The notes: generated by a model from the letters alone, not told the origin. A DNA stretch of 64,000 nt from a candidate division WWE3 bacterium (GCA_014729135.1 WJKK01000001.1:629407-693406), one strand, 5' to 3'; shown: positions 51,450 through 64,000, numbered from the stretch's first letter. Numbers and translations are program-made.

Positions 51450-53306
51450 TTAATCAGTAACGCAATAACCGCCAATAACAGGAGTCTTACCAAGTAAACT
51501 GTAAATTGGAGAAAAGTAAGAATTCTTGTAACTAAAATCCTCCTCATGCCACTCCAAAGGTTCAACGCCTGCCGTAGCTTTATTCTCAAACACCTCCGGG
51601 TTCTTATAGAAATAATTAAAGGTTCTACTGTTTTCTGTGCGATTTAAAAATGACAGTAAAATTCCGGGATTTTCCGGTTCAATTACATCTTTTTGAACAA
51701 AACATTCATAATTCAAGCCTCCCGGAATTGCTTCCATTACATCCGCGGGATTATCAAACCTGCCAACATGCATGTAACGCGTAAAGGAACCGCGAACAAA
51801 GACATTAGTAACAAGATTATGCTCCTCCTGAAATTTATAACCCAGCTTCCAGCGCAACTCCTCTTCGGTGTAAAAATCCCAAGTTAAAAACACTGTTACT
51901 ATAGCCAAGAAAGAAAGAGCAATAAACCCGCAGCTACGAGCATAAAAACCCTTTAGATCTACCAACAAACCACTCCTTGATAAGTAAACACCCACTAGAA
52001 GCGTCAAAAAAGGAAAGGCAGCAATAAAATAACGATCATAAAAATCGCTGGTTAAAAGGCTCCCAACAAAAACAACTCCAAAAAGGCCAAGAACAGTTAA
52101 ACTTAAAGAAAGCATTTGTAAATCAAAATCCTTGCGACAACAAGAGGCAATAAAACCTTCCAGCCAGTCAATAAATAAGTAAACTCCCAACAAAAAAGTG
52201 AATGATAAGTAAACGCTTAGACCCAACTTAAAAGGGATGTTGTCAAAAAGGCTAATCCAGTGGGTGAAATCGGATTTTGTGTAAAAACCTTCAATGTAAA
52301 AGACGTTGCCAACCGCAAAAATATCCTTTTGATAAAAAAGCGGAAAAATTAACAAAGCGGCAACAAGACTAATCCATTTAACTTTTACAGGAATCTTTTT
52401 GTAAGCCACATAAACAAGTGGTGAAAGGAAAAAGGCCACATAAGGAATTAAATAGGGATACATCTTAATTTGCTTATAGAAATTTTCTAAATCAACGGGA
52501 TTGCCTAAAATACGCGTTTCTGAAGCTTCAACATATTGTGGCCATTTTGTGTACAAGAACAAAAGGCTTATAAAAGGCACTACTAAAATAACGAGCTCCT
52601 TCCACTTAAACTTTTTTGTGTGAAATTGATCATGTGCCAAAACTAAAAAGTAGGCTATTAAAAAGACGAGGCCAAATTGGCGGATATAAAGACTAGCGCC
52701 TGCTAAAAGACTTGCTACTAAGAGGTGGGTAATATTTCGTTTTTCTAAATAGTGAAGGAAAAGGTAAAGACTCCAGATGGCAAAGGTTAAAAAGTAGATT
52801 TCGGTCATGTAGGAAAGAGCAGAGGTGAAAAAGAGGGGATTAAAGATGATTGTTAGTAGTGTTAGGGCTGTTAGGGTTTTTTTAGTTTTTTTGGGCTGCA
52901 GTTTTTGGAGGGTTTTGTAGGCACCAAATAAGAAAGCAAAGCTAAAAAGGATGGTTAAAATGCGGAGGGACAGGAAGCTAAATCCAAAAAGTTTTGTCCA
53001 GAGAATTCCTAAAAGGCCTTGCAGAACAAAGGCTGTGTCAATTAGGCGGTTTTTTGCAAAGATGCCCTGTGAAAAGAGGCGGGTGTGAATGTAGAAGTCC
53101 CAATCGTCGTTTACAGCGTGGTTTCCCCAAGGGCTTACAAGGAGGATGGCTAGGATGTAGAGAGCGAGGGTTATGGTTAAGGGGTTTTTGAGGATTGGGG
53201 GGAGGGAGGAGGTTTTTGGGATTTTGACTTTATGGAGAATTCTACAAAGGGGGTTTTGTGATTTTTGAAAGATTTTCATTTTTTTTAGTTTTGCAGGAAG
53301 TTTCAT
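51450..53306 (-). CDS. large polytopic membrane protein, GT-C-like
   Basis: 618 aa with 12 or more TM helices and a C-terminal soluble domain; loop HAVNDDWDFYIHTRLF near the N-terminus. Confidence 0.5.
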   Translation of the reverse strand: MKLPAKLKKMKIFQKSQNPLCRILHKVKIPKTSSLPPILKNPLTITLALYILAILLVSPWGNHAVNDDWDFYIHTRLFSQGIFAKNRLIDTAFVLQGLLGILWTKLFGFSFLSLRILTILFSFAFLFGAYKTLQKLQPKKTKKTLTALTLLTIIFNPLFFTSALSYMTEIYFLTFAIWSLYLFLHYLEKRNITHLLVASLLAGASLYIRQFGLVFLIAYFLVLAHDQFHTKKFKWKELVILVVPFISLLFLYTKWPQYVEASETRILGNPVDLENFYKQIKMYPYLIPYVAFFLSPLVYVAYKKIPVKVKWISLVAALLIFPLFYQKDIFAVGNVFYIEGFYTKSDFTHWISLFDNIPFKLGLSVYLSFTFLLGVYLFIDWLEGFIASCCRKDFDLQMLSLSLTVLGLFGVVFVGSLLTSDFYDRYFIAAFPFLTLLVGVYLSRSGLLVDLKGFYARSCGFIALSFLAIVTVFLTWDFYTEEELRWKLGYKFQEEHNLVTNVFVRGSFTRYMHVGRFDNPADVMEAIPGGLNYECFVQKDVIEPENPGILLSFLNRTENSRTFNYFYKNPEVFENKATAGVEPLEWHEEDFSYKNSYFSPIYSLLGKTPVIGGYCVTD

Positions 53307-53435
53307 CCTTTTTAATATACTATATTGTACTTATGTTTAGGGGCTAGTGAGATGTATGATTTTTGTTTAAACCTGCGAATGCTTTAAGAAGGTGATAAAA
53401 TTGCAAGTGCTTTGGAAACATGTGATTCCTTGTAG

Positions 53436-53512
53436 CGGGGTGTAGCTCAGTTGGCTAGAGTGCGCGCTTTGGGAGCGTGAGGTCCCGGGTTCGAGTCCCG
53501 GCACCCCGACCA
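53436..53512 (+). tRNA. tRNA-Pro (anticodon TGG)
   Basis: Acceptor cggggtg/caccccg, D-arm gctc-agttggcta-gagt, anticodon stem cgcgc/gcgtg with loop tttggga, T-arm ccggg-ttcgagt-cccgg, 3' acca. Confidence 0.8.
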
Positions 53513-53579
53513 GGGTTTTTAGTAGCTTGTTATTCCCATAACGGTAATAAATAATGCGGTTCTAAACCTTGATAACCAA

Positions 53580-53600
53580 ACAGGACAACTCGAACTTTTT
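53580..53600. repeat. Repeat B copy (ACAGGACAACTCGAACTTTTT) at the left edge of the GNAT cassette
   Basis: Identical core to 54299-54320; a related copy lies at 59994-60018. Confidence 0.55.
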
Positions 53601-53618
53601 CAGTGTTAAAATTAGTGT

Positions 53619-54215
53619 ATGGACATAAAATCACCGCAAAACTTAATGGAACTAACAGATGTATTCAGGTTTGTCGAAAAGGTGCTAAAATTGGAACCAG
53701 GCCATATAAGGGATCTCAGCTTTTACAAGAAGCAATTTGAAACAACACCCTACTTTTCTATTTATGTCGAAAAAGACAACGAAGTATTAGGGGCATTGCT
53801 GGCAGTGCCTCAGGGAAACGATGGACTGTTAGTAGGTGAAGTAGCTGTATCAGAAAAGGCTAGGGGAAAAGGAATAGGTTCCTTGTTACTTACCGAAATT
53901 GAAAAAAGAGCCAAGAAATACAAAAAGAAGAATGTCCTATTGGGATCACTAGAGACTGCAGAAGAATTTTACTTAAAGCACCAATATAAACCCAAATTAT
54001 TCATTCAGCTACAAGGTACCAATAGATTAAAAGAACTAAAGAATTTCGCCAAAGATAATTCTTATGAAAAAGATATTATTTGGGAAAATGAAGGAGATGG
54101 ATTTAGCAAAATAATAATCGAAACTTCAACCATAGACAAAAAACTTCAGGATAAGGCTAAGACATTATCTGGTGCACACACACAATACCTATTTTCAAAA
54201 AAGTTGCAAACATAG
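53619..54215 (+). CDS. GNAT family N-acetyltransferase
   Basis: VAVSEKARGKGIGSLLLTEIEKRAKK is the acetyl-CoA binding motif A (R/Q-x-x-G-x-G/A). Confidence 0.7.
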   Translation: MDIKSPQNLMELTDVFRFVEKVLKLEPGHIRDLSFYKKQFETTPYFSIYVEKDNEVLGALLAVPQGNDGLLVGEVAVSEKARGKGIGSLLLTEIEKRAKKYKKKNVLLGSLETAEEFYLKHQYKPKLFIQLQGTNRLKELKNFAKDNSYEKDIIWENEGDGFSKIIIETSTIDKKLQDKAKTLSGAHTQYLFSKKLQT

Positions 54216-54320
54216 TCCGCTATGGTCGACCAGGATTACAAACATTATTTCCTTACTGTAGCAACAATGAATACCGAGTTCTAAATTTTGGAGACCTAAC
54301 AGGACAACTCGAACTTTTTT
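54202..54320. repeat. composite attC-like junction: 31-nt Repeat A (AGTTGCAAACATAGTCCGCTATGGTCGACCA), a 66-nt spacer, and 22-nt Repeat B (ACAGGACAACTCGAACTTTTTT)
   Basis: Repeat A overlaps the GNAT stop codon. Repeat B overlaps the stop of the minus-strand 54319 gene. The outer termini AAAAAGTT..GTCC and GGAC..AACTTTTT are inverted. Confidence 0.55.
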
Positions 54321-55263
54321 ATTCAATAGTGGTAATTGGCCTACTCTGAGTTATATAAAATGTATTATCCCTATAAGCCCACTCAATATCTTGGGGCTTG
54401 TCGTAAAATGATTCTACTGTTGTACATATCCTTGCTAATTCCTGAATACGTCTATAATCCAACTTTTGACTATACTCTTCTTCGATTTCTTCCCATTCCA
54501 AGCCTTTTAGATCTTTGGGTAAAGCTAACTTTCTATCTTGTTCGGCAATATCAACACGCAAAACTACATCGTATTCCTTGTTATACTCATAAGAATCGGG
54601 GGTCAATTGGCCAGAAACTATACCCTCACCAAGTCCATATACTGCTTCAATAAGCATAATGTTCTTTTGCATTGAAATTGGATGAACTGTAAAGCATATG
54701 CCAGAAATGTCGCTTTGAACCATCTCTTGTACTACAACTGCCACCGCTCCATCTTTTGGTTTTATTTTCCTTTCTAAAGCATAAGTTATCGCTCTGGGGG
54801 AATAAAGAGATGCCCAACATTTTTTTATGTTGTCTATCAGATCTTCTTTAGTAGTGTTTAAATACGTTTCAAGTTCACCCGCCCAAGAATCTGTATCCGA
54901 ATCCTCAGAAGTGGCGGAACTACGGACAGCAACCAAATTCAGGTTTAGTGTATCGTACTGTGTCAAAATTTCATTCTTGAGCTTGTCGGCAATGCTTCCT
55001 TTTGTTATGGCCGCTTGGATTCTTTCACTGGCCTTGTTTATACCATCAAGATTACTTACAGTAACTTTTTCTAAAGAACTACTAATTACCTTTTCTAGTT
55101 CGTTAGTACTCAAAAACTTTTCAAAAGCTCTCGTTGTAACAACAAAACCTTGAGGTATAGGAATACCATACTGATACATCTTTGCCAGGGAAGCTCCCTT
55201 ACCACCAGTAAGTTTATTGTCTGTACACTTTGAATTTTCGAATATAAGAACTAGATCTTCCAT
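54319..55263 (-). CDS. PEP-utilising enzyme, N-terminal ATP-grasp (PPDK_N-like) domain protein
   Basis: KLTGGKGASLAKMYQYGIPIPQGFVVTTRAFEKFL matches the PEP synthase/PPDK nucleotide-binding N-domain. Confidence 0.65.
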   Translation of the reverse strand: MEDLVLIFENSKCTDNKLTGGKGASLAKMYQYGIPIPQGFVVTTRAFEKFLSTNELEKVISSSLEKVTVSNLDGINKASERIQAAITKGSIADKLKNEILTQYDTLNLNLVAVRSSATSEDSDTDSWAGELETYLNTTKEDLIDNIKKCWASLYSPRAITYALERKIKPKDGAVAVVVQEMVQSDISGICFTVHPISMQKNIMLIEAVYGLGEGIVSGQLTPDSYEYNKEYDVVLRVDIAEQDRKLALPKDLKGLEWEEIEEEYSQKLDYRRIQELARICTTVESFYDKPQDIEWAYRDNTFYITQSRPITTIE

Positions 55264-55265
55264 AT

Positions 55266-56768
55266 TTACTCCACAACCTCAACAATACCTTTTACGGCAT
55301 TAACTTTAACTTTATCTCCTGTTTTTATAATTTTTGTAGCGGATTTTGTACCTATTACACAAGGTATTTTAAGCTCCCTGGATACTATAGCTGCATGACT
55401 AGTAATACCACCCTCATTAGTAACTATCGCAGATGATTTTCTTATAGCAGGCATCAAACTTGGCCTAGTATTTCCAATAACTAGAATTGCACCTTCGGGC
55501 ATGCTTTTAACCTTCTTGTTAAAATCTTTATCTCCCCAGTTCATACAATAAGCTTTTCCTTCCACAACACCAGGAAAGGCAGTATTGCCCTCAATTTCTT
55601 TAATGGCATCGTAATTAGGCTTAGGTACTAGTTTGTTGAATTCAGCTATTGCACTGTCTCCATAAACAGACTTAGTAAGAACATCATTCTTTACTAAGAA
55701 TAGGTAGGCTTTGTAGCGATCCTTTGTCTTAAAGCTATCTTCAATATCTTCTTTACTAAAATCAATCTGAACTAGTTCACCAGGAGATAACGCCAACAGT
55801 GTATATGCAGGGATTTGCGTTAGCCTGGAAATTTTATAAACGAGTTCTCTCAACATCCTAAAGTACGCTGACCAAAGAATTCGTAGCTCAAGACGGTAGC
55901 GACCTAAATTTGCTAAACAGTCAGCTACATAAACTGTAGGCATTTCCAAACGGTGCTTATTTATAAATTCTTCTTTATTCACTCTGGCATTCTCGACAGC
56001 TTTGCTAAGCTCTGTTACTTTCTCGGACAAATTAACCTTAGAATCCAAACAATCCCTAAGAAGACCTATATAGTGCTGCAAATCCCAGTGGTCTGCTCCT
56101 TCATTTCCACTTAAGTGGCCATATTTTTTTATATGACTGTCTAGGGCATCTTTAAATTCCTTATAATCGGTAATCGTTTCTAGATTTATATCAGGCAAAA
56201 CATCTTCATATTTAAGTAGCAGTTTAAAAAAATCCTCCTCTTCATGATGCAACATAGATTTCTCCACAGGCGCTGTTAAAACAGCCACTGCTTCAGATAA
56301 ATCATCCTGTTCTAAATCATTAGCTAGATGATCTTCCAATCCTTTTGTAAATTGTGGGTTGGTCATGTTAAAAAAGGCAAACACATCAATTAGGGCCTGG
56401 GAAATATTAGCTAGAAGTTTTTGAATCACCGCCAAATCTTCCACATCATCAAACTGGGTCCTGAACAAGATTTGATCTTCCTTCAACTTCTTCTGTTTTT
56501 TCTTTACAGAATTAATAAATTCTCTATATTGTTCTTTATCCTGAAAATAGCTATAACCAAACTTCCCAGCTGCCTCCAAATCCTCTGGGGAGTGATAGGC
56601 TTCCAATACCTCATTCCTTGCAAATAGCAGCATACCTTTTGAAAAATACCCAAACAACTCTTTTTGCCTATCTACACAAAAAATTGTCCCATGTCCCATT
56701 TCAAATACGGGCGCATCTGCAACTTCCCAGATTTTTTCCCATTTTAGTGGCTCCTTTTTATCTACCAT
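55266..56768 (-). CDS. PEP-utilising enzyme mobile (phosphohistidine swivel) domain protein with a ~370-aa unknown N-terminal region
   Basis: C-terminal GGITSHAAIVSRELKIPCVIG is the phospho-His swivel-domain signature. It is separated by 2 nt from the downstream PPDK_N gene. Confidence 0.65.
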   Translation of the reverse strand: MVDKKEPLKWEKIWEVADAPVFEMGHGTIFCVDRQKELFGYFSKGMLLFARNEVLEAYHSPEDLEAAGKFGYSYFQDKEQYREFINSVKKKQKKLKEDQILFRTQFDDVEDLAVIQKLLANISQALIDVFAFFNMTNPQFTKGLEDHLANDLEQDDLSEAVAVLTAPVEKSMLHHEEEDFFKLLLKYEDVLPDINLETITDYKEFKDALDSHIKKYGHLSGNEGADHWDLQHYIGLLRDCLDSKVNLSEKVTELSKAVENARVNKEEFINKHRLEMPTVYVADCLANLGRYRLELRILWSAYFRMLRELVYKISRLTQIPAYTLLALSPGELVQIDFSKEDIEDSFKTKDRYKAYLFLVKNDVLTKSVYGDSAIAEFNKLVPKPNYDAIKEIEGNTAFPGVVEGKAYCMNWGDKDFNKKVKSMPEGAILVIGNTRPSLMPAIRKSSAIVTNEGGITSHAAIVSRELKIPCVIGTKSATKIIKTGDKVKVNAVKGIVEVVE

Positions 56769-56841
56769 AGGAACATTCTACACCAATAAGTAACAAGCTA
56801 GATAGAAATAACACTTTTCATGTATGTATTTTGACTGAAAA

Positions 56842-56872
56842 AGTTGCAAACATAGTCCGCTATGGTCGACCA
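56842..56872. repeat. Repeat A copy (AGTTGCAAACATAGTCCGCTATGGTCGACCA), identical to 54202-54232
   Basis: 31/31 nt identity read from the sequence, plus a shared AAAAAG prefix. Confidence 0.6.
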
Positions 56873-57031
56873 TACTTGATGGTTTTTTCTTCAGCATCCT
56901 TTAAAACCTTATATAACGGACTAATCTCGCAGTTCGCAAAAATGATCAAAAACAAGGCAAATAACACTTTGCAACCAAAAATCTATATATAACACTAATA
57001 AATTGGTTCTAGTCTTGGGTAGCGTTTCTTT

Positions 57032-57727
57032 TCAGAGAGGACTTTTAATATTTCTTAATTTCGGATTTGTAACTTGAGTATATCTTTGTGTGGTTCTAAT
57101 ATTTTGATGACCGAGTAATTCTTGAACATACCTAATATCAACTCCGTTTTCTAATAAGTGAGTTGCAAAACTATGTCGTAGTGAATGAAATGTCGCCTCC
57201 TTCTTAATTTCGGCGTTTCTCATAGCATTAGTAAAAATTTTTTGTGCTGTACGAGTTGTAAGTTTTCCCCCTCGTTCACTTGGAAAAACATATTCGTTTG
57301 GCTTCCCAGAATTAATTATCATTTTTAGATCATTTTTAATCTTCTCTGGGATAATTGTTATTCTATCCTTTTTCCCCTTGGCTTTCTTAATATGAAGTGT
57401 AAGATTATTAATATCTACGTCTTTGACTTTTAAGTTGACAACTTCACTAACTCTTAATCCTGCTCCATATGCTACGGAAAGGATCAATCTATGCTTATTA
57501 TTATTTGTTACTTCAGTCAATCTTTTGATTTCTTTACGATTTAGTATTACTGGAAGACTTTTGTTGTGTTTCGCAGATTTAATATCTATTTTGGAGGAAG
57601 TTTTTACAACGTTATAGTAATAAAACTTAATTGAATTCAAATATAGATTCCTTGTCTTAGCAGAGAGTCCTTTATCTGAACAGGTGAGTAGAAAGTTTCG
57701 TATGTTATCGATATCTAACTGCTTCAA
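57032..57727 (-). CDS. tyrosine-type site-specific recombinase/integrase (short, 231 aa)
   Basis: GLRVSE (catalytic Arg), HSLRHSFATHLL (H-x-x-R) and LGHQNIRTTQRYTQV (Tyr nucleophile). TTG start. Much shorter than IntI/XerC. Confidence 0.75.
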   Translation of the reverse strand: MKQLDIDNIRNFLLTCSDKGLSAKTRNLYLNSIKFYYYNVVKTSSKIDIKSAKHNKSLPVILNRKEIKRLTEVTNNNKHRLILSVAYGAGLRVSEVVNLKVKDVDINNLTLHIKKAKGKKDRITIIPEKIKNDLKMIINSGKPNEYVFPSERGGKLTTRTAQKIFTNAMRNAEIKKEATFHSLRHSFATHLLENGVDIRYVQELLGHQNIRTTQRYTQVTNPKLRNIKSPL

Positions 57728-58024
57728 ATTGGTTTTCTTGAACTGAAAGTATTTTTGAATTCCATTCGTGTAGCTTTTGATTGTTTTTTGGCTGTAATTG
57801 CGAATTTTTAACTCTCGTACAGTTGCTGTTGTTTCTTTTTTGATCTTTTTGTTTCTTATGTTATGATGTCGATAATTAATTTAGAGTGTTATATTAGAAG
57901 CAGTTCGCATAGTATATGAAATTCTGTACACATTACAAAAATACTTCGGATAGTAACGAGTTAAATGAAATATTCTTCTGAAAATTATTTTTATTCTGTA
58001 TTTTTGACACTTTTTTTAACCTAA

Positions 58025-59116
58025 ATGACGGCCGAAGTGATAAGACCAACCCAAGATTTTTCCGATATCCTCAATATTCCTAAAGATGAACTGGAAGACT
58101 CAGTTTGGAGAAACTTTTGGGGTGGCTTGTATGCTGTACGAGAAGAATCTCCAAATATAGCTCGGTTATTCCAAGAAGCTTTAGTCAATCGTAACAAATT
58201 TATTCCAACATCCATTGCTAACTATAGACACCTGATACCACGACCATTCAACTATCTCTTATTGCAAGAAGATCTTGATATAGAAATCGACCGTCTTTCA
58301 GCTATTGATTGGCAAAAGCATATCCGTCGTATTACAACTACCAAATCACGAGAACTATCCAACCTACTCGAGACAAAAACCTTGGCAGTATTTAACAGCA
58401 AACGCTATCTTCCAATATTGTTTTTGAGAGATATGTTAGGTTTTAACACAAATCGATGTGCTGATTTAGGATGCAGTGTGAACTTTGGTTTCACTAAATT
58501 AACCCAAATAACCCCCGATGCGTTCGATACCATTGTAAACCAATTAGACCATAATACTACACCCCAGCCTCTTGATGTTCCTGAATACGAGATTGGTTTT
58601 GACTATCAACAAAGAGATTTGTTATGGACTCAAGCATGTTATTTCCCTCAATATATTCAACATATGCGAAAGAAATTAGGTGAGCTTGAGGACGTATATC
58701 AATCTCAGAATAATCATTTTGAAGCTGTCGATTTGACAAAAAATATTGTTAGTCAAAAACCATCTCTTGAAGAAATTATCGGAACGATGGATGTAGTACA
58801 TGCAAGTCTTGTTTTTTACTTACTTGATGAAGAAGGTCGGAAAGCTTTTACTGATAACGCTTTGAGATTGTTAAAAGAAGGTGGTGCATTTATTCAGACC
58901 GACATGTTTGATCCAGATCTTAAACTAGATAGTGCACGCTCTGTTAGAACTGTAGTGAAATTTAAAGAAAGTGACTATAAATTCTCCCATGGATTAGAAC
59001 TGATTGAGTATGCACACTCAGCTACCAAAGACCATGGACCGTCTGATAGTTGCAATGTGTGGTATCCAGGAAAAGACTGGAACGAACTTAAAAAAAGTGT
59101 CAAAAATACAGAATAA
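58025..59116 (+). CDS. hypothetical protein (possible methyltransferase-like C-terminal region)
   Basis: 363 aa. ALRLLKEGGAFIQTDMF resembles a SAM-MTase LLKPGG segment, but no clear motif I. Confidence 0.35.
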   Translation: MTAEVIRPTQDFSDILNIPKDELEDSVWRNFWGGLYAVREESPNIARLFQEALVNRNKFIPTSIANYRHLIPRPFNYLLLQEDLDIEIDRLSAIDWQKHIRRITTTKSRELSNLLETKTLAVFNSKRYLPILFLRDMLGFNTNRCADLGCSVNFGFTKLTQITPDAFDTIVNQLDHNTTPQPLDVPEYEIGFDYQQRDLLWTQACYFPQYIQHMRKKLGELEDVYQSQNNHFEAVDLTKNIVSQKPSLEEIIGTMDVVHASLVFYLLDEEGRKAFTDNALRLLKEGGAFIQTDMFDPDLKLDSARSVRTVVKFKESDYKFSHGLELIEYAHSATKDHGPSDSCNVWYPGKDWNELKKSVKNTE

Positions 59117-59573
59117 AAATAATTTTCAGAAGAATACATCATTTATTTTTCTCTCTATTGGATTAGTCATAGTACTAATTTATATTGTAGGAGCTATATT
59201 GATAAATCTCGCATTTAAACCGGAAGATAATCCTTATAATTGGAATATAGAAAATTGCACTAAAATAGTAAATCAATACAAAAACGAGAAAAATAAAATT
59301 GATAATTTTGAAGATGGATTCCGTGTTGATCCAGGTCCTCCATTCAGAATCGTTTTCATTAACTATAGAGGTGTAGTTGATAATTGGAATGGTATTATCT
59401 ATGATCCTTCTAAAGAGATAGAAAAAATTATCAATTACGATCAGGTTGGTTGGGAAAGTTGGTGGAATGATCCAAATCTAAACTCATTAAAAAGTATATT
59501 TGGCGGAGATGTTGCTGGTTGTAAAAAAATGGATGATTGGGGTGATGACTGGTATTTTTGCTCATTCACCTGA
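59004..59573 (+). CDS. small membrane-anchored hypothetical protein (true start probably downstream of the overlap with the 58025 ORF)
   Basis: TM helix FIFLSIGLVIVLIYIVGAILINLAF, then a Trp/Asn-rich soluble part. Confidence 0.3.
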   Translation: MSMHTQLPKTMDRLIVAMCGIQEKTGTNLKKVSKIQNKNNFQKNTSFIFLSIGLVIVLIYIVGAILINLAFKPEDNPYNWNIENCTKIVNQYKNEKNKIDNFEDGFRVDPGPPFRIVFINYRGVVDNWNGIIYDPSKEIEKIINYDQVGWESWWNDPNLNSLKSIFGGDVAGCKKMDDWGDDWYFCSFT

Positions 59574-59808
59574 TAATACAAAATTCTTCAACAAAATAAA
59601 TAAGGATGAGGCGGATATAGAAAAAGTAGTGGATTGGATTACACAGAGAGGCTATGGGGAAGATAGGGAATTTCAATTTCACTCATCTACAGACTTAATA
59701 CAACGCAGACAAAACGGTTATTATTTAGAAGAGACCCTAACTTCCTGAAAAAATGCAGAGACGGTACATATAGATGAAAAGGGTAGAATTATCTAGCAAT
59801 CATGTAAA

Positions 59809-60018
59809 AGTTACAAACATAGTCCGCTATGGCCGACCATTTGTCGTTGCGAAGCAACTACAAATGCTTAACAAAATACAAGCACCCTTCCTTTTCTTTA
59901 AAATGGGGGCGTAGTATTTTGTTATGCCTGCAAGTGTTGCAAAGCAACCTTGCAGAACATCGATTAAGAGCAAAGCATTTTTGACGAGCTAATCAGAACA
60001 ACCCAAACTTTTTCAATG
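59809..60018. repeat. attC-like junction: Repeat A variant (AGTTACAAACATAGTCCGCTATGGCCGACCA), two GTTGC-NNN-GCAAC palindromes, and a Repeat B variant (CAGAACAACCCAAACTTTTTCAATG)
   Basis: 29/31 identity to Repeat A; palindromes gttgcgaagcaac (59846-59858) and gttgcaaagcaac (59936-59948). Confidence 0.5.
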
Positions 60019-60031
60019 ATAAACTGTAAAT

Positions 60032-60802
60032 ATGAAAATAACACCTAACAGAATTAGAAAACTGGTGGAAATAGCTTATGTAATAGAGCCACTCTTGGAT
60101 AAAGAGGACTGTACAACAAGGTTTATAGATCTTCCTGGTAAGACAATATATGACTTCATACTTGCTGGATTAAATGTGGGGGAAGTATTTGAAGATTACG
60201 CAAGAAGTGTTCAAGAGCATAATAACAAGGAACTTTTATCCCATTTTGAGAGAGCAGTAAAACTTAGCAATGAATACAAGCATGAAAAGCTAATCAACAT
60301 AGGACTCTTAGAATTTATGTTCGTTGCAGTCAAATCCCGACTTATCTCAAATACATTAGAAAAAAGTTTAGACAACATTAAAAAGGTGCTACAGGATACT
60401 TCTAATGAGGATGTACGAAATGAATACAAGGTCTTTGTTGGCGCACTATCTACATCGGAAAAAGACACAAAAAAATCCTTATGGATTGAAACATATAAAG
60501 ATTTTTTGGGGTTTAATAATCTTCACGAGTACTATTTACACGCTGAAGAAGCACTCTCTAAGGATAAGACTACTGCTAATTACCAGGTAGCTCATGAGTT
60601 TACAGAGGGATTTCCTATATTGAAACAATATGTGAACAGCATTGAAAAAAGTAAGGGACTAATAAAAAGTATTGAAAACACGTATGAAAAACTCCATAAA
60701 GAGAACCCCCAAGTTAAAATAGGTATACTGGCAGATTTTAGTGCTGTAGCAATATTTTTGTACTTAAGCTACCAAGACCCCTCAACATACGTCCTTAACT
60801 AA
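60032..60802 (+). CDS. hypothetical protein
   Basis: 256-aa ORF bounded by junction repeats; no motif recognised. Confidence 0.35.
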   Translation: MKITPNRIRKLVEIAYVIEPLLDKEDCTTRFIDLPGKTIYDFILAGLNVGEVFEDYARSVQEHNNKELLSHFERAVKLSNEYKHEKLINIGLLEFMFVAVKSRLISNTLEKSLDNIKKVLQDTSNEDVRNEYKVFVGALSTSEKDTKKSLWIETYKDFLGFNNLHEYYLHAEEALSKDKTTANYQVAHEFTEGFPILKQYVNSIEKSKGLIKSIENTYEKLHKENPQVKIGILADFSAVAIFLYLSYQDPSTYVLN

Positions 60803-60820
60803 AGTAGAGTTGCCAAAAAA

Positions 60821-60853
60821 AGTTGCAAGCATAATCAGCTATAGGCGATCAAA
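60821..60853. repeat. degenerate Repeat A copy (AGTTGCAAGCATAATCAGCTATAGGCGATCAAA)
   Basis: Shares AAAAAGTTGCAA..CATA.TC.GCTAT.G.CGA..A with Repeat A. Confidence 0.4.
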
Positions 60854-60886
60854 TCTTCACTTTTACTTTTTGTTATAATTTTTAAT

Positions 60887-61318
60887 ATGAAGTACGAATT
60901 TTACATAGCCGCCAGATGGAGAAATAAGGAAAACGTTTTAAAGCTTGCCCGAGGGTTAGAATCACGCAAGAAAATCGCCTACAATTTTATTGAAGGTGAT
61001 GGCGAACAATATGAATTCAAAGAACAAGAAAAAATTTTAGAACCTGAGGAATTAATGGAAAAATTTGAGAGCATTCCTAATTGGAAAAATGATTCAAAAG
61101 TAAAAGAGATATTTGAGGTAGACATACAAGCTATTAAAAATTCCGAGAAGTTGATCCTTTTGCTTCCTGCAGGAAAATCTGCTCACATAGAGGCTGGAAT
61201 AGCCTATGGAATGGGTAAAGAGTGTATTGTTATCGGGGAACAAAAAGAAGCGGAAAGTTTGTACCTCATATTCTCCAAATTTTACGAAACTATCGAAGAT
61301 TTTGTTAAATCAGTATAG
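60887..61318 (+). CDS. hypothetical protein (possibly nucleoside 2-deoxyribosyltransferase-like fold)
   Basis: 143 aa; LILLLPAGKSAHIEAGIAYGMGKECIVIG weakly resembles NDT-family C-terminal motifs. Confidence 0.3.
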   Translation: MKYEFYIAARWRNKENVLKLARGLESRKKIAYNFIEGDGEQYEFKEQEKILEPEELMEKFESIPNWKNDSKVKEIFEVDIQAIKNSEKLILLLPAGKSAHIEAGIAYGMGKECIVIGEQKEAESLYLIFSKFYETIEDFVKSV

Positions 61319-61373
61319 TTGTAAACACAACCCATTGTACTACATGGTGTCGTGAAACAACCCCAACTCCTCC
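61318..61373. repeat. short degenerate junction (AGTTGTAAACACAACCC ... AAACAACCCCAACTCCTCC) resembling Repeat A + Repeat B
   Basis: Partial matches to both repeat cores between two cassette genes. Confidence 0.3.
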
Positions 61374-61390
61374 AATGCTAAAATCAACGC

Positions 61391-61960
61391 ATGTCAGAAA
61401 AAATCCAAAAACTAGAAAACAAACTAACCGAAATAATGTCTCGATGGGGCGGTTTAGATCATGGTCAAGAAACAAGAGAATGGCTCTTAAAGATCGATCC
61501 TCAATCCCCTTGGCAATTACAAATAGCTGCTTTTGCTCATGATATTGAAACTGCAATACCCTACATTGAAGGCATGACTCCAAAAAGGTTCTCTAGAGAA
61601 GATTGTGAAAACTACGACGAGTACAAGGGAAGACATGCTAAAAGAAGCGCACAAGTAATTGAACACATAATGACAACCTACAACTTTCCTAAGGAAGATA
61701 TTAAAAAAGTCTGCAATGCAATAGAAAAACGTGAGGTAGGAGGAGACACAGATAGCGATTTAGTTAGAGACGCCGACAGTATAAGATGGTTCGATAAAAA
61801 AGGACATCCTAAATATATTGAAAATTACGGAATTGATGCTGCTAAAGAGAAAGCTCTGTGGATGTATGAGAGAGCAACGAAAAAAACAAGGGAATTGATT
61901 GATTCGCTACCCTATGATAAAAGAATCAAGAACTACATAGCTCAAAAGGACGCCTCATAA
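61391..61960 (+). CDS. HD domain protein
   Basis: LQIAAFAHDIETAIPY contains the H..HD metal-binding motif. Confidence 0.45.
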   Translation: MSEKIQKLENKLTEIMSRWGGLDHGQETREWLLKIDPQSPWQLQIAAFAHDIETAIPYIEGMTPKRFSREDCENYDEYKGRHAKRSAQVIEHIMTTYNFPKEDIKKVCNAIEKREVGGDTDSDLVRDADSIRWFDKKGHPKYIENYGIDAAKEKALWMYERATKKTRELIDSLPYDKRIKNYIAQKDAS

Positions 61961-62001
61961 AAAGTGCTGTGACGGTATGCATTACAGTCAACCAGTAGAT
62001 A

Positions 62002-62538
62002 TCAAACTTCAATCAAACTTTTCCAATTGTTCTTATAATACTCATAACGCTCCTCAAAAACATCTCGCTTAGTTATGGAAATGCCTAATTTTTCAAACTT
62101 TTTTCTTAATACACCTAAGGTCTTGTCCTTTAAATCCGCAGAAACCATCTTTTCAATCTCAATGATATAACCATAACCTTCCGTATAATCCAAAAACATC
62201 TTGGTACCTTCCCACATATAAACAAGTCTGTTCCTTTTCCATACAATCTCAACAGAAAAACCTAAAGCTTCAAAAAGCCTCTTTAAATTCTCAAAATCCT
62301 TCTTCTTGCATACAATTTCAATTTCTTCTCTAGCCTCATCATGAATTGCTCCTTTTTTAAGCCAGACTTTAGAACCTGAATTATTTAGCTGTATTCTTAG
62401 ATCTTGTTTAGTATCAAAATAATGGGTGATTTGTGTGTCTTGTTTTAAAAACTTTCCATTTTCGTCTAGAAATTTTTTTAAATCATGGTATTTTTTCTCG
62501 TCGATAAAACTGCGAAGTTCGACCTCAACATTTCCCAT
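62002..62538 (-). CDS. CYTH domain protein (class IV adenylyl cyclase / triphosphate tunnel family)
   Basis: N-terminal VEVELRSF is the ExExK/R tunnel motif; ~178 aa is typical of the family. Confidence 0.45.
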   Translation of the reverse strand: MGNVEVELRSFIDEKKYHDLKKFLDENGKFLKQDTQITHYFDTKQDLRIQLNNSGSKVWLKKGAIHDEAREEIEIVCKKKDFENLKRLFEALGFSVEIVWKRNRLVYMWEGTKMFLDYTEGYGYIIEIEKMVSADLKDKTLGVLRKKFEKLGISITKRDVFEERYEYYKNNWKSLIEV

Positions 62539-62647
62539 GGTTTGATTTTAGCAGAGAAGAATTGAAGACAGGCGCTGCTTAGGTTCAGCAAATAAAAACA
62601 GCGCTCTAACAGCACAGCCCGGATTTCTCTAATGTTAAAATGGCAAC

Positions 62648-63199
62648 ATGAACACCAAAATAAAAGACTACACACGGAAAGAAGTGGAAAAAATACTAAA
62701 TGAAAAAAACATGACTTTAAAACAATTTCTTAAACAAATTCAAAAACAAGGGTACCTTTTACACGGTTCCCCTAATTGCAACATAGAAAAATTTGAACCC
62801 AAAGAGCCGGGAGACCTTAGAGGGGGATGGACAACACAAAAAGGAGTATATGCAACTTCCTCAGAACAACCAATTATTTTTTCGCTCATTCACAGAGACA
62901 AAGTTAAAGGTGAGTTTTACTTTGAGTCCGGAAAGACTTCAGATGGGAAAATACTTTACGGAATCTCTAAAGATATTAAAGAAAGCAATGCTATACAACC
63001 CGGGTGCATGTATATATTTGAAAATGAGGGCTTTATAGAAAATCCAAACAATCCCGGAGAATGGATGAATCCGAATCCTGTTAGACCTGTGGGAAAGATA
63101 CCGACTGAATTGGAGGATATAGATGCAGTTATCAGAGTTGTGGAGATTCCACCGGAAGATCAGGACTGGGAAAATTACGAACCAAAGTTTTTAGATTGA
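62648..63199 (+). CDS. hypothetical protein
   Basis: 183-aa ORF; no recognisable motif. Confidence 0.35.
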   Translation: MNTKIKDYTRKEVEKILNEKNMTLKQFLKQIQKQGYLLHGSPNCNIEKFEPKEPGDLRGGWTTQKGVYATSSEQPIIFSLIHRDKVKGEFYFESGKTSDGKILYGISKDIKESNAIQPGCMYIFENEGFIENPNNPGEWMNPNPVRPVGKIPTELEDIDAVIRVVEIPPEDQDWENYEPKFLD

Positions 63200-63235
63200 G
63201 GACCTCACACATATAAAAAGCACGGGGAAACTCCA

Positions 63236-64000
63236 CTACACCACAAAATCAATATACTTAGGCAGATACTCCTTATAAGAATCAATAAAACCCTCCAAAA
63301 CAGCCGGCGACTCCAACAGAGGCTCCAAATCCTTATATAGAAATTCGCTATCAATAACCAACACCTTCTCCTTAAAATCCTCTAGTGCTTTGGAAAGCGT
63401 CTTATCTGCTAACAATACCTTTAAACGCTCAATATTCATTTTCAACTCGAAAGAAGACTTAGAAGACAACTGCAAAAACCAATAAAGATCATATACATCA
63501 CGCCCTTTAAACGGAATCTTCTGAAACTTTCCTTTAAAGAAGGAACGGTTTAAAAATGCTACAAACTTATTAGCAAAAAGCGTAGGTAAGTCATAAGAAG
63601 TAACGAAAAACTGAAACTTACCCGCCGTAATAAGGTTTTTATCCGTATCATAAACTCCTGCGGTCTCCTGTGAAACATCCACACGCACAAATATATCCTC
63701 GGGAATACGATCCTCATAAAATTCAAGCTCCTTAAGAAGAGGAAATTTGAAGTAAACTGTATTCCTATTACCCGAGATAGAATAGTCAATTGTTTTATAC
63801 TGAACTTTTGAACGAAAATACGTCAGCACATCCTTGCTAAACTGCTCAATGTCAAAACTACCTAAAAAGTCAAAATCGAGATCTTCAGACAGGCGATTTA
63901 AACCGTAAACCTTGCGCAAACATGTGCCCCCTGTAAAAAGCAGTTCATTATAGTCGGTGCTTGTAAAAACAAAATTTAAAATGTAATTTTGGATCTCTTC
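63236..64000 (-). CDS. AbiEii/AbiGii-like nucleotidyltransferase, 5' end beyond the window
   Basis: The called ORF starts at a TTG at 63919. The frame stays open upstream to the window edge and encodes ...NELLFTGGTCLRKVYGLNRLSEDLDFDF, the canonical GGTxL...R.SEDLDF motif. So the gene continues past position 64000. Confidence 0.5.
   Translation of the reverse strand, partial: EEIQNYILNFVFTSTDYNELLFTGGTCLRKVYGLNRLSEDLDFDFLGSFDIEQFSKDVLTYFRSKVQYKTIDYSISGNRNTVYFKFPLLKELEFYEDRIPEDIFVRVDVSQETAGVYDTDKNLITAGKFQFFVTSYDLPTLFANKFVAFLNRSFFKGKFQKIPFKGRDVYDLYWFLQLSSKSSFELKMNIERLKVLLADKTLSKALEDFKEKVLVIDSEFLYKDLEPLLESPAVLEGFIDSYKEYLPKYIDFVV

Follow-up and report, generated by a model that had tools for sequence, protein, structure and literature searches.

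A putative tRNA-anchored, Xer-like gene-capture locus with tandem repeat-bounded units in a candidate division WWE3 bacterium

Gene units and repeats around the recombinase

The last 10.5 kb of a 64,000-nucleotide stretch from a candidate division WWE3 bacterium (GCA_014729135.1, WJKK01000001.1:629407-693406; hereafter the window, meaning the whole stretch at its full length) carry a tyrosine recombinase gene surrounded by at least four small gene units that share the same terminal 35-base site, repeat A, and probably by six (Table 1). The units are 0.5-3 kb in size and contain one or a few accessory genes in either orientation. An original prediction, made from the DNA alone, had described this region as an integron-like array of 11 or more small, unrelated genes in both orientations, beginning right after tRNA-Pro; about 13 small genes on both strands were found, and the first unit does follow the end of tRNA-Pro(tgg) directly. 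The locus is best described as a tRNA-anchored, Xer-like gene-capture locus with tandem repeat-bounded units, and the integron label appears partly right for the platform around the recombinase and wrong for the repeats.

Repeat A spans 35 nt (AAAAAGTTGCAAACATAGTCCGCTATGGTCGACCA), contains an inner palindrome (CATAG-N4-CTATG) and terminates in CGACCA, as tRNA-Pro does. The copies A1 and A2 are identical over 35 nt, while A3 and A4 are 91% and 83% identical, and together with two weak copies the window holds four plus two, all on the plus strand and each at the right end of its unit regardless of gene orientation. A 32-nt A core, allowing up to 3 mismatches, gave three matches in the 64 kb (0 expected, 100 shuffles), all restricted to the last 10.5 kb, so the predicted recurrence of the repeats in this region was borne out. 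The copies predicted at 54202, 56842, 59809 and 60821 were sustained, and that at 61318 (~61314-61350) proved marginal, being an 11-nt block with p ~0.02. The other weak copy (61959-61997) has an end, GTCAACCAGT, that matches an A copy in another genome, locus L001 (p ~0.004). Candidate copies at 63215 and 63937 were unsupported on testing, and no supported A copy was found between 61998 and 64000; the array may run beyond the window end at 64000.

Several units have repeat B, a conserved box, at their near end. Its 21-nt core is identical at 53580 and 54299 (0 expected by chance) and extends to 42 nt at 86% identity (53559 vs 54278); a third copy, at 59991 (59994 in the prediction, which had located all three), is 73-81% identical, and a fainter one lies at 62607. 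In three units a promoter-like TGnTAAAAT box stands between B and the ATG, 5-10 nt ahead of the latter. A and B are complementary to each other in their outer 8 nt (AAAAAGTT/AACTTTTT). The idea that B is an inverted copy of A found support solely in this terminal 8-mer and in the T-loop-like GTTCGAGT (p 0.02-0.04), so the likeness of B to an inverted A or to a tRNA T-loop, confined to 8-mers, appears weak. An Rfam scan of the window at a permissive threshold returned nothing besides the tRNA.

Table 1. Features of the repeat-bounded array, in window coordinates
Feature	Position	Strand	Description
tRNA-Pro(tgg)	53436-53512	+	ARAGORN; Rfam 65 bits; 3' end ...CCCCGACCA, proposed attachment site (attB)
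Unit 1	53513-54232	+	Spacer; B1 53559-53600; extended -10-like box TGTTAAAAT; GNAT acetyltransferase 53619-54215; A1 54198-54232
Unit 2	54233-56872	+	Spacer; B2 54278-54319; split phosphoenolpyruvate (PEP)-utilising enzyme genes; A2 56838-56872
PPDK_N gene	54319-55263	-	Unit 2, half of split PEP-utilising enzyme
PEP-utilizers gene	55266-56768	-	Unit 2, other half of split PEP-utilising enzyme
Unit 3 (in the model)	56873-59839		Recombinase, attI-like box, cassette, two small open reading frames (ORFs), A3
R0	56873-57031	-	Conserved 3' flank of recombinase gene, 159 nt; alignment with L014 and L032
XerA-like ('Cand'-type) simple tyrosine recombinase	57032-57844	-	270 aa; ATC at start position; Pfam Phage_integrase 153 bits
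attI-like box	57925-57961	-	...TTTAAC/TCGTTACTATCCGAAGTATTTTTG; ends 115 nt upstream of recombinase start
First cassette at attI-like box	57962-59145	+	Methyltransferase-like gene 58025-59116 between 58-nt inverted repeats
Membrane-anchored protein ORF	59055-59573	+	Within stretch 59146-59839 leading to A3
82-aa ORF	59500-59748	+	Before A3 (59805-59839)
Unit 4	59840-60851	+	150-nt spacer with three hairpins; B3 59991-60013; 256-aa gene 60032-60802; A4 60817-60851
Unit 5	60852-61350	+	Nucleoside-deoxyribosyltransferase-like gene 60887-61318; weak A copy ~61314-61350
Unit 6	61351-61997	+	B-like box with TGCTAAAAT; DUF4202 gene 61391-61960; weak A copy 61959-61997
CYTH gene	62002-62538	-	Accessory gene past unit 6
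B-like/promoter box	62607-62647		Past unit 6
183-aa gene	62648-63199		Past unit 6
AbiEii toxin-like gene	63236-63919	-	Past unit 6

The recombinase and its family platform

The recombinase had been predicted to comprise 231 aa. The frame continues open past the TTG at 57727 in the upstream direction, and relatives begin 39 codons earlier, so the shorter length is an ORF-calling artefact, and the protein extends to 270 aa with a complete N-terminal domain. At the start position (57842-57844, minus strand) the window reads ATC vs ATG in the related locus L014. Because the same ATC stands at the recombinase start in L016 (a Dojkabacteria genome, ~1633) and L032 apparently uses GTG (the others ATG), the codon is probably a weak start rather than a lesion, and it may be a deliberately weak one. 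The translation shows the catalytic residues R, K, HxxR, H and Y, and the reading frame is intact.

In profile comparisons the enzyme matches NCBIfam NF040815 (XerA) end to end at 222 bits vs a cut-off of 220, and the integron integrase profile TIGR02249 at 207 bits vs a cut-off of 265, the latter match breaking at profile position 178. Comparison with PDB structures gave near-equal scores, 149 bits in one piece for archaeal XerA (4a8e) and 145 bits in two pieces for Vibrio IntI4 (2a3v), with 23 aa between the two pieces in the window recombinase vs 66 in IntI4. On these alignments the IntI-specific insertion is absent, as had been predicted, and the enzyme is best called XerA-like. The relatives P0061, P0009, P0022 and P0001 show the same behaviour. 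More than 7700 database relatives, typically of 270 aa and 65-87% identical, are spread across Patescibacteria and a few other phyla, often on very short contigs. According to Smyshlyaev et al., such proteins form a Xer-related 'Cand' subgroup of candidate phyla (PMC8138268), and a passage in PMC9668308, citing Messier and Roy 2001, regards the IntI-specific insertion as necessary for attC recombination.

Despite an enzyme without this insertion, the recombinase family sits on an integron-style platform. The attI-like box recurs at the same 115-nt distance in 11 other loci (L014, L016, L017, L018 and L027-L033). In L018, whose recombinase is 73% identical, ten small unrelated genes are transcribed divergently from the recombinase and are separated by imperfect palindromes (...TTTCATATAAC GTTTCGGTATATACGATG ... 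CCGTATATGCCGT GTTATATGATGTA) that fold as single strands with z-scores of -3 to -6.4. Five strains carry an identical recombinase (P0061) and the same downstream flank (tRNA-Ser, tRNA-Val, mur genes, L19 and FtsH), with upstream gene sets that differ. Between L030 and L029, a unit of ~1 kb with its own palindrome is inserted exactly between ...CATATAAC and TCGTTTTTATACGATG, at the attI-like junction. Alignment of 17 hairpin sites gave 18 predicted pairs with compensatory changes in 9 of them. A covariance model built from the attC-like sites of these relatives found 26 sites at 34-108 bits, including non-training sites in L014, L016, L017 and L025-L028 (34-50 bits). By analogy with these loci, the box at 57925-57961 would serve an attI-like function in the window itself. 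A search of the literature returned no description of such a platform.

Two further observations concern the arrays of the relatives. Two attC-like sites in L027 (672-887 and 2750-2860) are oriented opposite to all others relative to the recombinase, suggesting an inverted array stretch, and a near-identical attC-like site occurs in two genomes (L016 70-200 and L018 6984-7112), which hints at cassette exchange between lineages.

Repeats A and B of the window do not appear to be attC sites. The half-site hidden Markov models of the family's attC-like sites had no match in the window, and the best hit of the covariance model, 10.4 bits with an E-value of 1.2, amounts to no site. The attC-like stem that the original prediction proposed to look for by folding the junctions did not emerge: the A1-B2 junction folds no better than its shuffles (z -0.3), and A5-B5 reaches z -1.3. 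The outer boxes of the A-B junction read GTT...AAC, the reverse of the AAC...GTT of attC. As to the co-orientation and lack of promoters that characterise integron cassettes, the genes lie on both strands and several have the TGnTAAAAT box immediately ahead of the ATG.

Ends of the family type are confined to the first unit past the attI-like box. This methyltransferase-like cassette, whose assignment stems from weak matches, begins GTTAAATGAAATA... and finishes ...TACATCATTTA, with the attC-like inner palindrome missing. The gene is enclosed by an inverted repeat, I1, with 58-nt arms at 57962-58019 and 59088-59145 that are 97% complementary; the two mismatches fall in the TGAAATA/TACATCA terminal boxes, which are also the two boxes that differ at both ends of the L018 cassettes. 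I1 may be an invertible switch, but the extended terminal repeats of a family-type cassette fit better. The right arm of I1 also codes for the first residues of the next ORF.

The strongest folding in the array lies in the spacer of unit 4, where 59800-59945 gives z -4.9 and its central hairpin z -3.3 to -3.6. Three adjacent hairpins occupy 59838-59957, between A3 and B3, and the middle one (59866-59926, GCTTAAC...GTTATGC, 11-bp stem) resembles a short canonical attC, with no match by the family model or Rfam. In L016, a compact hairpin is formed by an A-like and an inverted A-like sequence (z -4.5).

Among the cargo genes, the PPDK_N gene of unit 2 has more than 6800 homologues across Patescibacteria, the best non-self one at 57% identity and most others at ~50%; being so widespread, it is neither rare cargo nor a cassette that can be traced. 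The PEP-utilising enzyme to which it belongs is split in an unusual gene order (54319-56768, minus strand; mobile domain first, ATP-grasp second), and this order is conserved in thousands of Patescibacteria homologues. No cassette gene common at high identity to the window and L001-L018 was found, and the CYTH gene of the window shares only 25% identity with that of L016. A homologue of the GNAT gene, 68% identical, occurs in L022/L023 in another genomic context, with a diverged A-like end downstream and ...ATGCTCGACCA upstream, which lends modest support to the mobility of the units. AbiEii is the sole match of PADLOC on the window; the match to this toxin-like gene begins at profile position 23-51, so the gene is possibly truncated, and no antitoxin gene was identified beside it. 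On the other side of the array, a 20-nt G/T-rich motif (AGGGGGTTTTGTGATTTTTG) occurs three times at 53207-53365, between a membrane glycosyltransferase-like gene and tRNA-Pro.

Repeat A, tRNA 3' ends and the proposed model

Scans for A identified three loci in the genome collection and one in the metagenome collection; nine viral matches lay inside a coding sequence and were discarded as chance matches. In these four loci (L001-L004, Patescibacteria) the 30-nt A core is identical, while shared genes are only ~55-66% identical to those of the window, and in each of them A is situated close to a tRNA or tmRNA 3' end. In L001, tRNA-Glu is 200 nt away and copies of A bracket a single kinase-like gene; in L002, A abuts the tmRNA gene on its downstream side; L003 and L004 share with the window the order tRNA-Pro, one gene, then A, and in L004 a perfect partial copy of 18 nt (16 from the tRNA 3' end and 2 from the flank) is placed between the tRNA and the gene. 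Immediately upstream of the first A copy of L001 there is also a LAGLIDADG-type ORF with a run of ~10 G (2082-2740). A is absent from L017-L033, which have the same recombinase family.

In the window, the tRNA-Pro end with its flank (CGACCAGGGTT) matches the A1 end with its flank (CGACCAGGATT), and CGACCAGG is common to both at the junction (p ~0.009). The 3' flank of the recombinase gene, R0, provides a second line of evidence. In the window, L014 and L032 it can be aligned as far as ...GTATGGTCG (also ...GTCAAGTATGGTCG), and past this break the window has A2 (GTCCGCTATGGTCGACCA) in reverse complement, L032 has an 18-nt copy of its own tRNA-Pro 3' end, and in L014 there is an end resembling that of tRNA-Pro (GTCCAGTACCCCCGACCA), which makes up a 10-nt direct repeat (CCCCGACCAT) with the real tRNA-Pro across a 4.2-kb element. 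Since this three-way alignment breaks at A2 in one case and at tRNA 3' copies in the others, A holds the position of a displaced tRNA 3' end, with which it aligns as GTCC......CGACCA. Across the family, every locus with a readable downstream flank has a tRNA gene or remnant that converges on the recombinase gene from 128 nt to 5.3 kb away, and the interval often holds partial copies of tRNA 3' ends or whole inserted elements.

Several such intervals have features of their own. In L033 (1900-2220, part masked N) tandem units of ~110 nt, each opening with a partial tRNA-Ser 3' copy, occupy the space from the recombinase to tRNA-Ser. In L014 (3135-5630) and L018 (10937-16128), the Xer-like recombinase is separated from the tRNA by elements that carry replication/relaxase-type genes and a serine recombinase, and the serine recombinase ORF of L018 overlaps the tRNA-Ser 3' end.

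On balance, it seems somewhat probable that the units were added successively by site-specific recombination at the tRNA-Pro 3' end, with A as the arm carried by each. The locus would then be a recombination hot spot centred on a small tyrosine recombinase of Xer/XerA-like type, encoded tail-to-tail with tRNA-Pro. Recombination would be conservative and site-specific, with the crossover in or beside the terminal CGACCA, and A would represent a diverged copy of the tRNA-Pro 3' end. An incoming circle would carry A as the left arm of its attachment site, followed by the core CGACCA and the left end of the unit; on recombination at the tRNA-Pro 3' end or at an A already in place, it would leave A at the far end of the unit, resulting in the direct series tRNA/U1-A1/U2-A2/U3-A3/U4-A4/(U5-A5/U6-A6). 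Unit 3 would have brought the recombinase, the attI-like box and one hairpin-type cassette of the kind that relatives capture there, and the other units, which have no recombinase, would have moved in trans. The action of the recombinase on A, the exact crossover position, the passage of units through circular forms and continued activity of the system are all presumed steps of this model.

Several points weigh against successive addition at the tRNA. For the units of the window itself, no empty site, excision product or circular junction was seen. The identity at the A-tRNA junction extends over only 6-8 nt, with modest statistics (p ~0.01), and A3-A6 lie past the attI-like box, distant from the tRNA, which makes integration into existing A sites necessary. 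L001-L004 carry A with no recombinase within ~4 kb, and A shows no significant likeness to the attI-like box, so that enzyme and A are linked by proximity alone; a resemblance noticed by eye (TTACAAAAATACTTCGG vs TTACAAACATAGTCCGC) gave nothing at p <= 0.02 in a shuffle test. The gene pair of unit 2 is common in Patescibacteria and need not be mobile, and the ATC start may mean that the recombinase is weakly expressed or dead, although L016 shares it. The orientation, position and cross-genome identity of A nevertheless appear to fit the tRNA-anchored model better than any rival.

The possibility that survives best among the alternatives, though it is unlikely, is that the array is a fossil that records past integrations by a system now inactive in this genome. 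Such decay would account for the ATC in place of ATG as a lost start codon, for the lack of any detectable attC-like site in the window, where the sole hairpin-type cassette has lost its own, and for the progressive degeneration of A4-A6 from 83% identity down to marginal copies. It sits less easily with A1 and A2, whose 100% identity suggests recent events or selection, with an open frame in which all catalytic residues are visible, and with the occurrence of the same ATC in L016, which has attC-like sites.

Another explanation, which seems quite unlikely, treats the recombinase as the chromosome-dimer resolvase (Xer), A or the attI-like box as dif, and the units as integrative elements exploiting Xer (IMEX), stacked as CTX and TLC are in Vibrio. 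The single-stranded, hairpin-folded genome of the CTX phage is integrated by XerCD and thus offers a precedent. The inner palindrome of A and its high conservation across genomes would suit a dif-like site, and a cumulative G-C skew peak lies near 54 kb; the skew, however, follows the gene strand, and the window extends only 10 kb past the peak, so it is uninformative as a test of the terminus. The best family match of the enzyme is XerA, and the 'Cand' group from candidate phyla is counted among the Xer-related recombinases (PMC8138268), yet other phyla and many contigs of 1-2 kb contain homologues with 65-72% identity, suggesting mobility. Seven housekeeping genes beside the array of L017 point away from the locus, which is unexpected at a terminus. 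Finally, A is tied to tRNA or tmRNA 3' ends in five of five genomes, and its absence from L017-L033 is hard to reconcile with a site of the same recombinase family.

The integron reading of the original prediction, in its strict form a divergent true integron whose A-spacer-B junctions fold as single-stranded attC sites and recombine with attI through the neighbouring integrase, is improbable. Part of it stands: the recombinase family does lie beside hairpin-site cassette arrays in relatives, where cassette gain and covarying hairpins were seen, and the window has the attI-like box. The complementary outer 8 nt of A and B and the A-like/inverted A-like hairpin of L016 (z -4.5) also speak for folded junctions, but the folding, the inverted box order and the failed model searches described above count against them. 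Units are present on the 3' side of the recombinase gene too, the homology break with L014 and L032 falls at the inner end of A (CGACCA) and not at the outer boxes, and the enzyme lacks the IntI insertion. The A-bounded units are better accounted for by the alternative that the prediction itself allowed, namely an island linked to a tRNA or some different recombination system.

A reading of the repeats as expression signals only, with A as a minus-strand terminator and B as a promoter box copied by ordinary duplication or homologous recombination, is very unlikely: at A1 and A2 the reverse complement of A scores as a weak hairpin with a T-run, A directly follows the tmRNA gene in L002 and the TGnTAAAAT box follows B in three units, but the stem has 6 pairs of which two are G-T, terminator-like sites in the window are no more numerous than in shuffles, A3 and A4 have no upstream minus-strand gene, 30 of 30 positions including loop and flanks are identical across genomes with ~60% identical proteins, and A stands at unit ends whatever the gene orientation and replaces a tRNA 3' copy.

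Relation to known systems

More broadly, and only tentatively, the locus may represent a gene-capture platform that parallels integrons and is widespread in Patescibacteria and some other uncultured phyla, built on a Xer/XerA-like enzyme without the IntI insertion, anchored at a tRNA gene and provided with two capture points, namely the attI-like box for cassettes with covarying hairpins and the tRNA 3' end for units with an A arm, the window displaying mainly the second mode. If this enzyme performs the capture, either hairpin-site capture arose more than once, or the platform is a surviving intermediate between Xer/dif and integrons. The occurrence of an abundant family without the IntI insertion beside strain-variable hairpin-site arrays bears on the view that this insertion enables folded-site recombination. 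A further kind of unit is seen in the window, with a boundary site of 35 nt that is unchanged between distant genomes, and this site could be a search handle for mobile genes in these phyla. If true, the platform would provide a route to accessory genes for reduced-genome, symbiotic bacteria.

Sedentary chromosomal integrons share with the locus a tyrosine recombinase divergent from small unrelated accessory genes, toxin genes included, and an insertion box just upstream of the recombinase gene, at which new cassettes enter in relatives; the cassettes of relatives also carry an imperfect palindrome with ...AAC/GTT... boxes and compensatory stem changes. In contrast to integrons, the window enzyme has no IntI-specific insertion, the platform is always beside a tRNA gene, the junction repeats of the window are not attC-like and occur on both sides of the recombinase gene, and many units have their own promoter-like box.

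Integrative elements and their integrase-less derivatives (CIMEs) are known to accrete in tandem at tRNA 3' ends. By comparison, the window array likewise starts at a tRNA 3' end, has direct repeats from that end between units, and includes one unit with an integrase and others without. Direct repeats of the tRNA end were found in L014 (10 nt), L032 (18 nt) and L004 (18 nt), and a tyrosine integrase gene adjoins the tRNA. Unlike CIME-type arrays, however, the window units are very small and mostly single genes, the repeat is a diverged, element-borne arm of 35 nt whose match to the tRNA is limited to its last 6-8 nt, and the integrase, simple and Xer-like, has no arm-binding domain.

Systems that exploit Xer offer the third set of parallels. 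IMEX (CTX/TLC) and XerS/difSL modules resemble the locus in using a Xer-family enzyme, a target near its own gene and tandem stacking, and IMEX are a case in which an enzyme lacking the IntI insertion works on an attachment site folded from a single strand; the difference is that no window site shows evidence of being dif or of lying at a terminus, and the link to tRNA 3' ends is not an IMEX feature. The pdif modules of Acinetobacter plasmids are also small gene modules, with toxin-antitoxin genes among them, bounded by short Xer-type sites. These pdif sites are 28-bp XerC/D sites of alternating orientation, whereas the A copies of the window are 35 nt long and all direct, without alternation. 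Taken together, the locus combines traits of integrons, of accretion at tRNA sites and of Xer-exploiting elements, and it can be regarded as a variant of these known systems.

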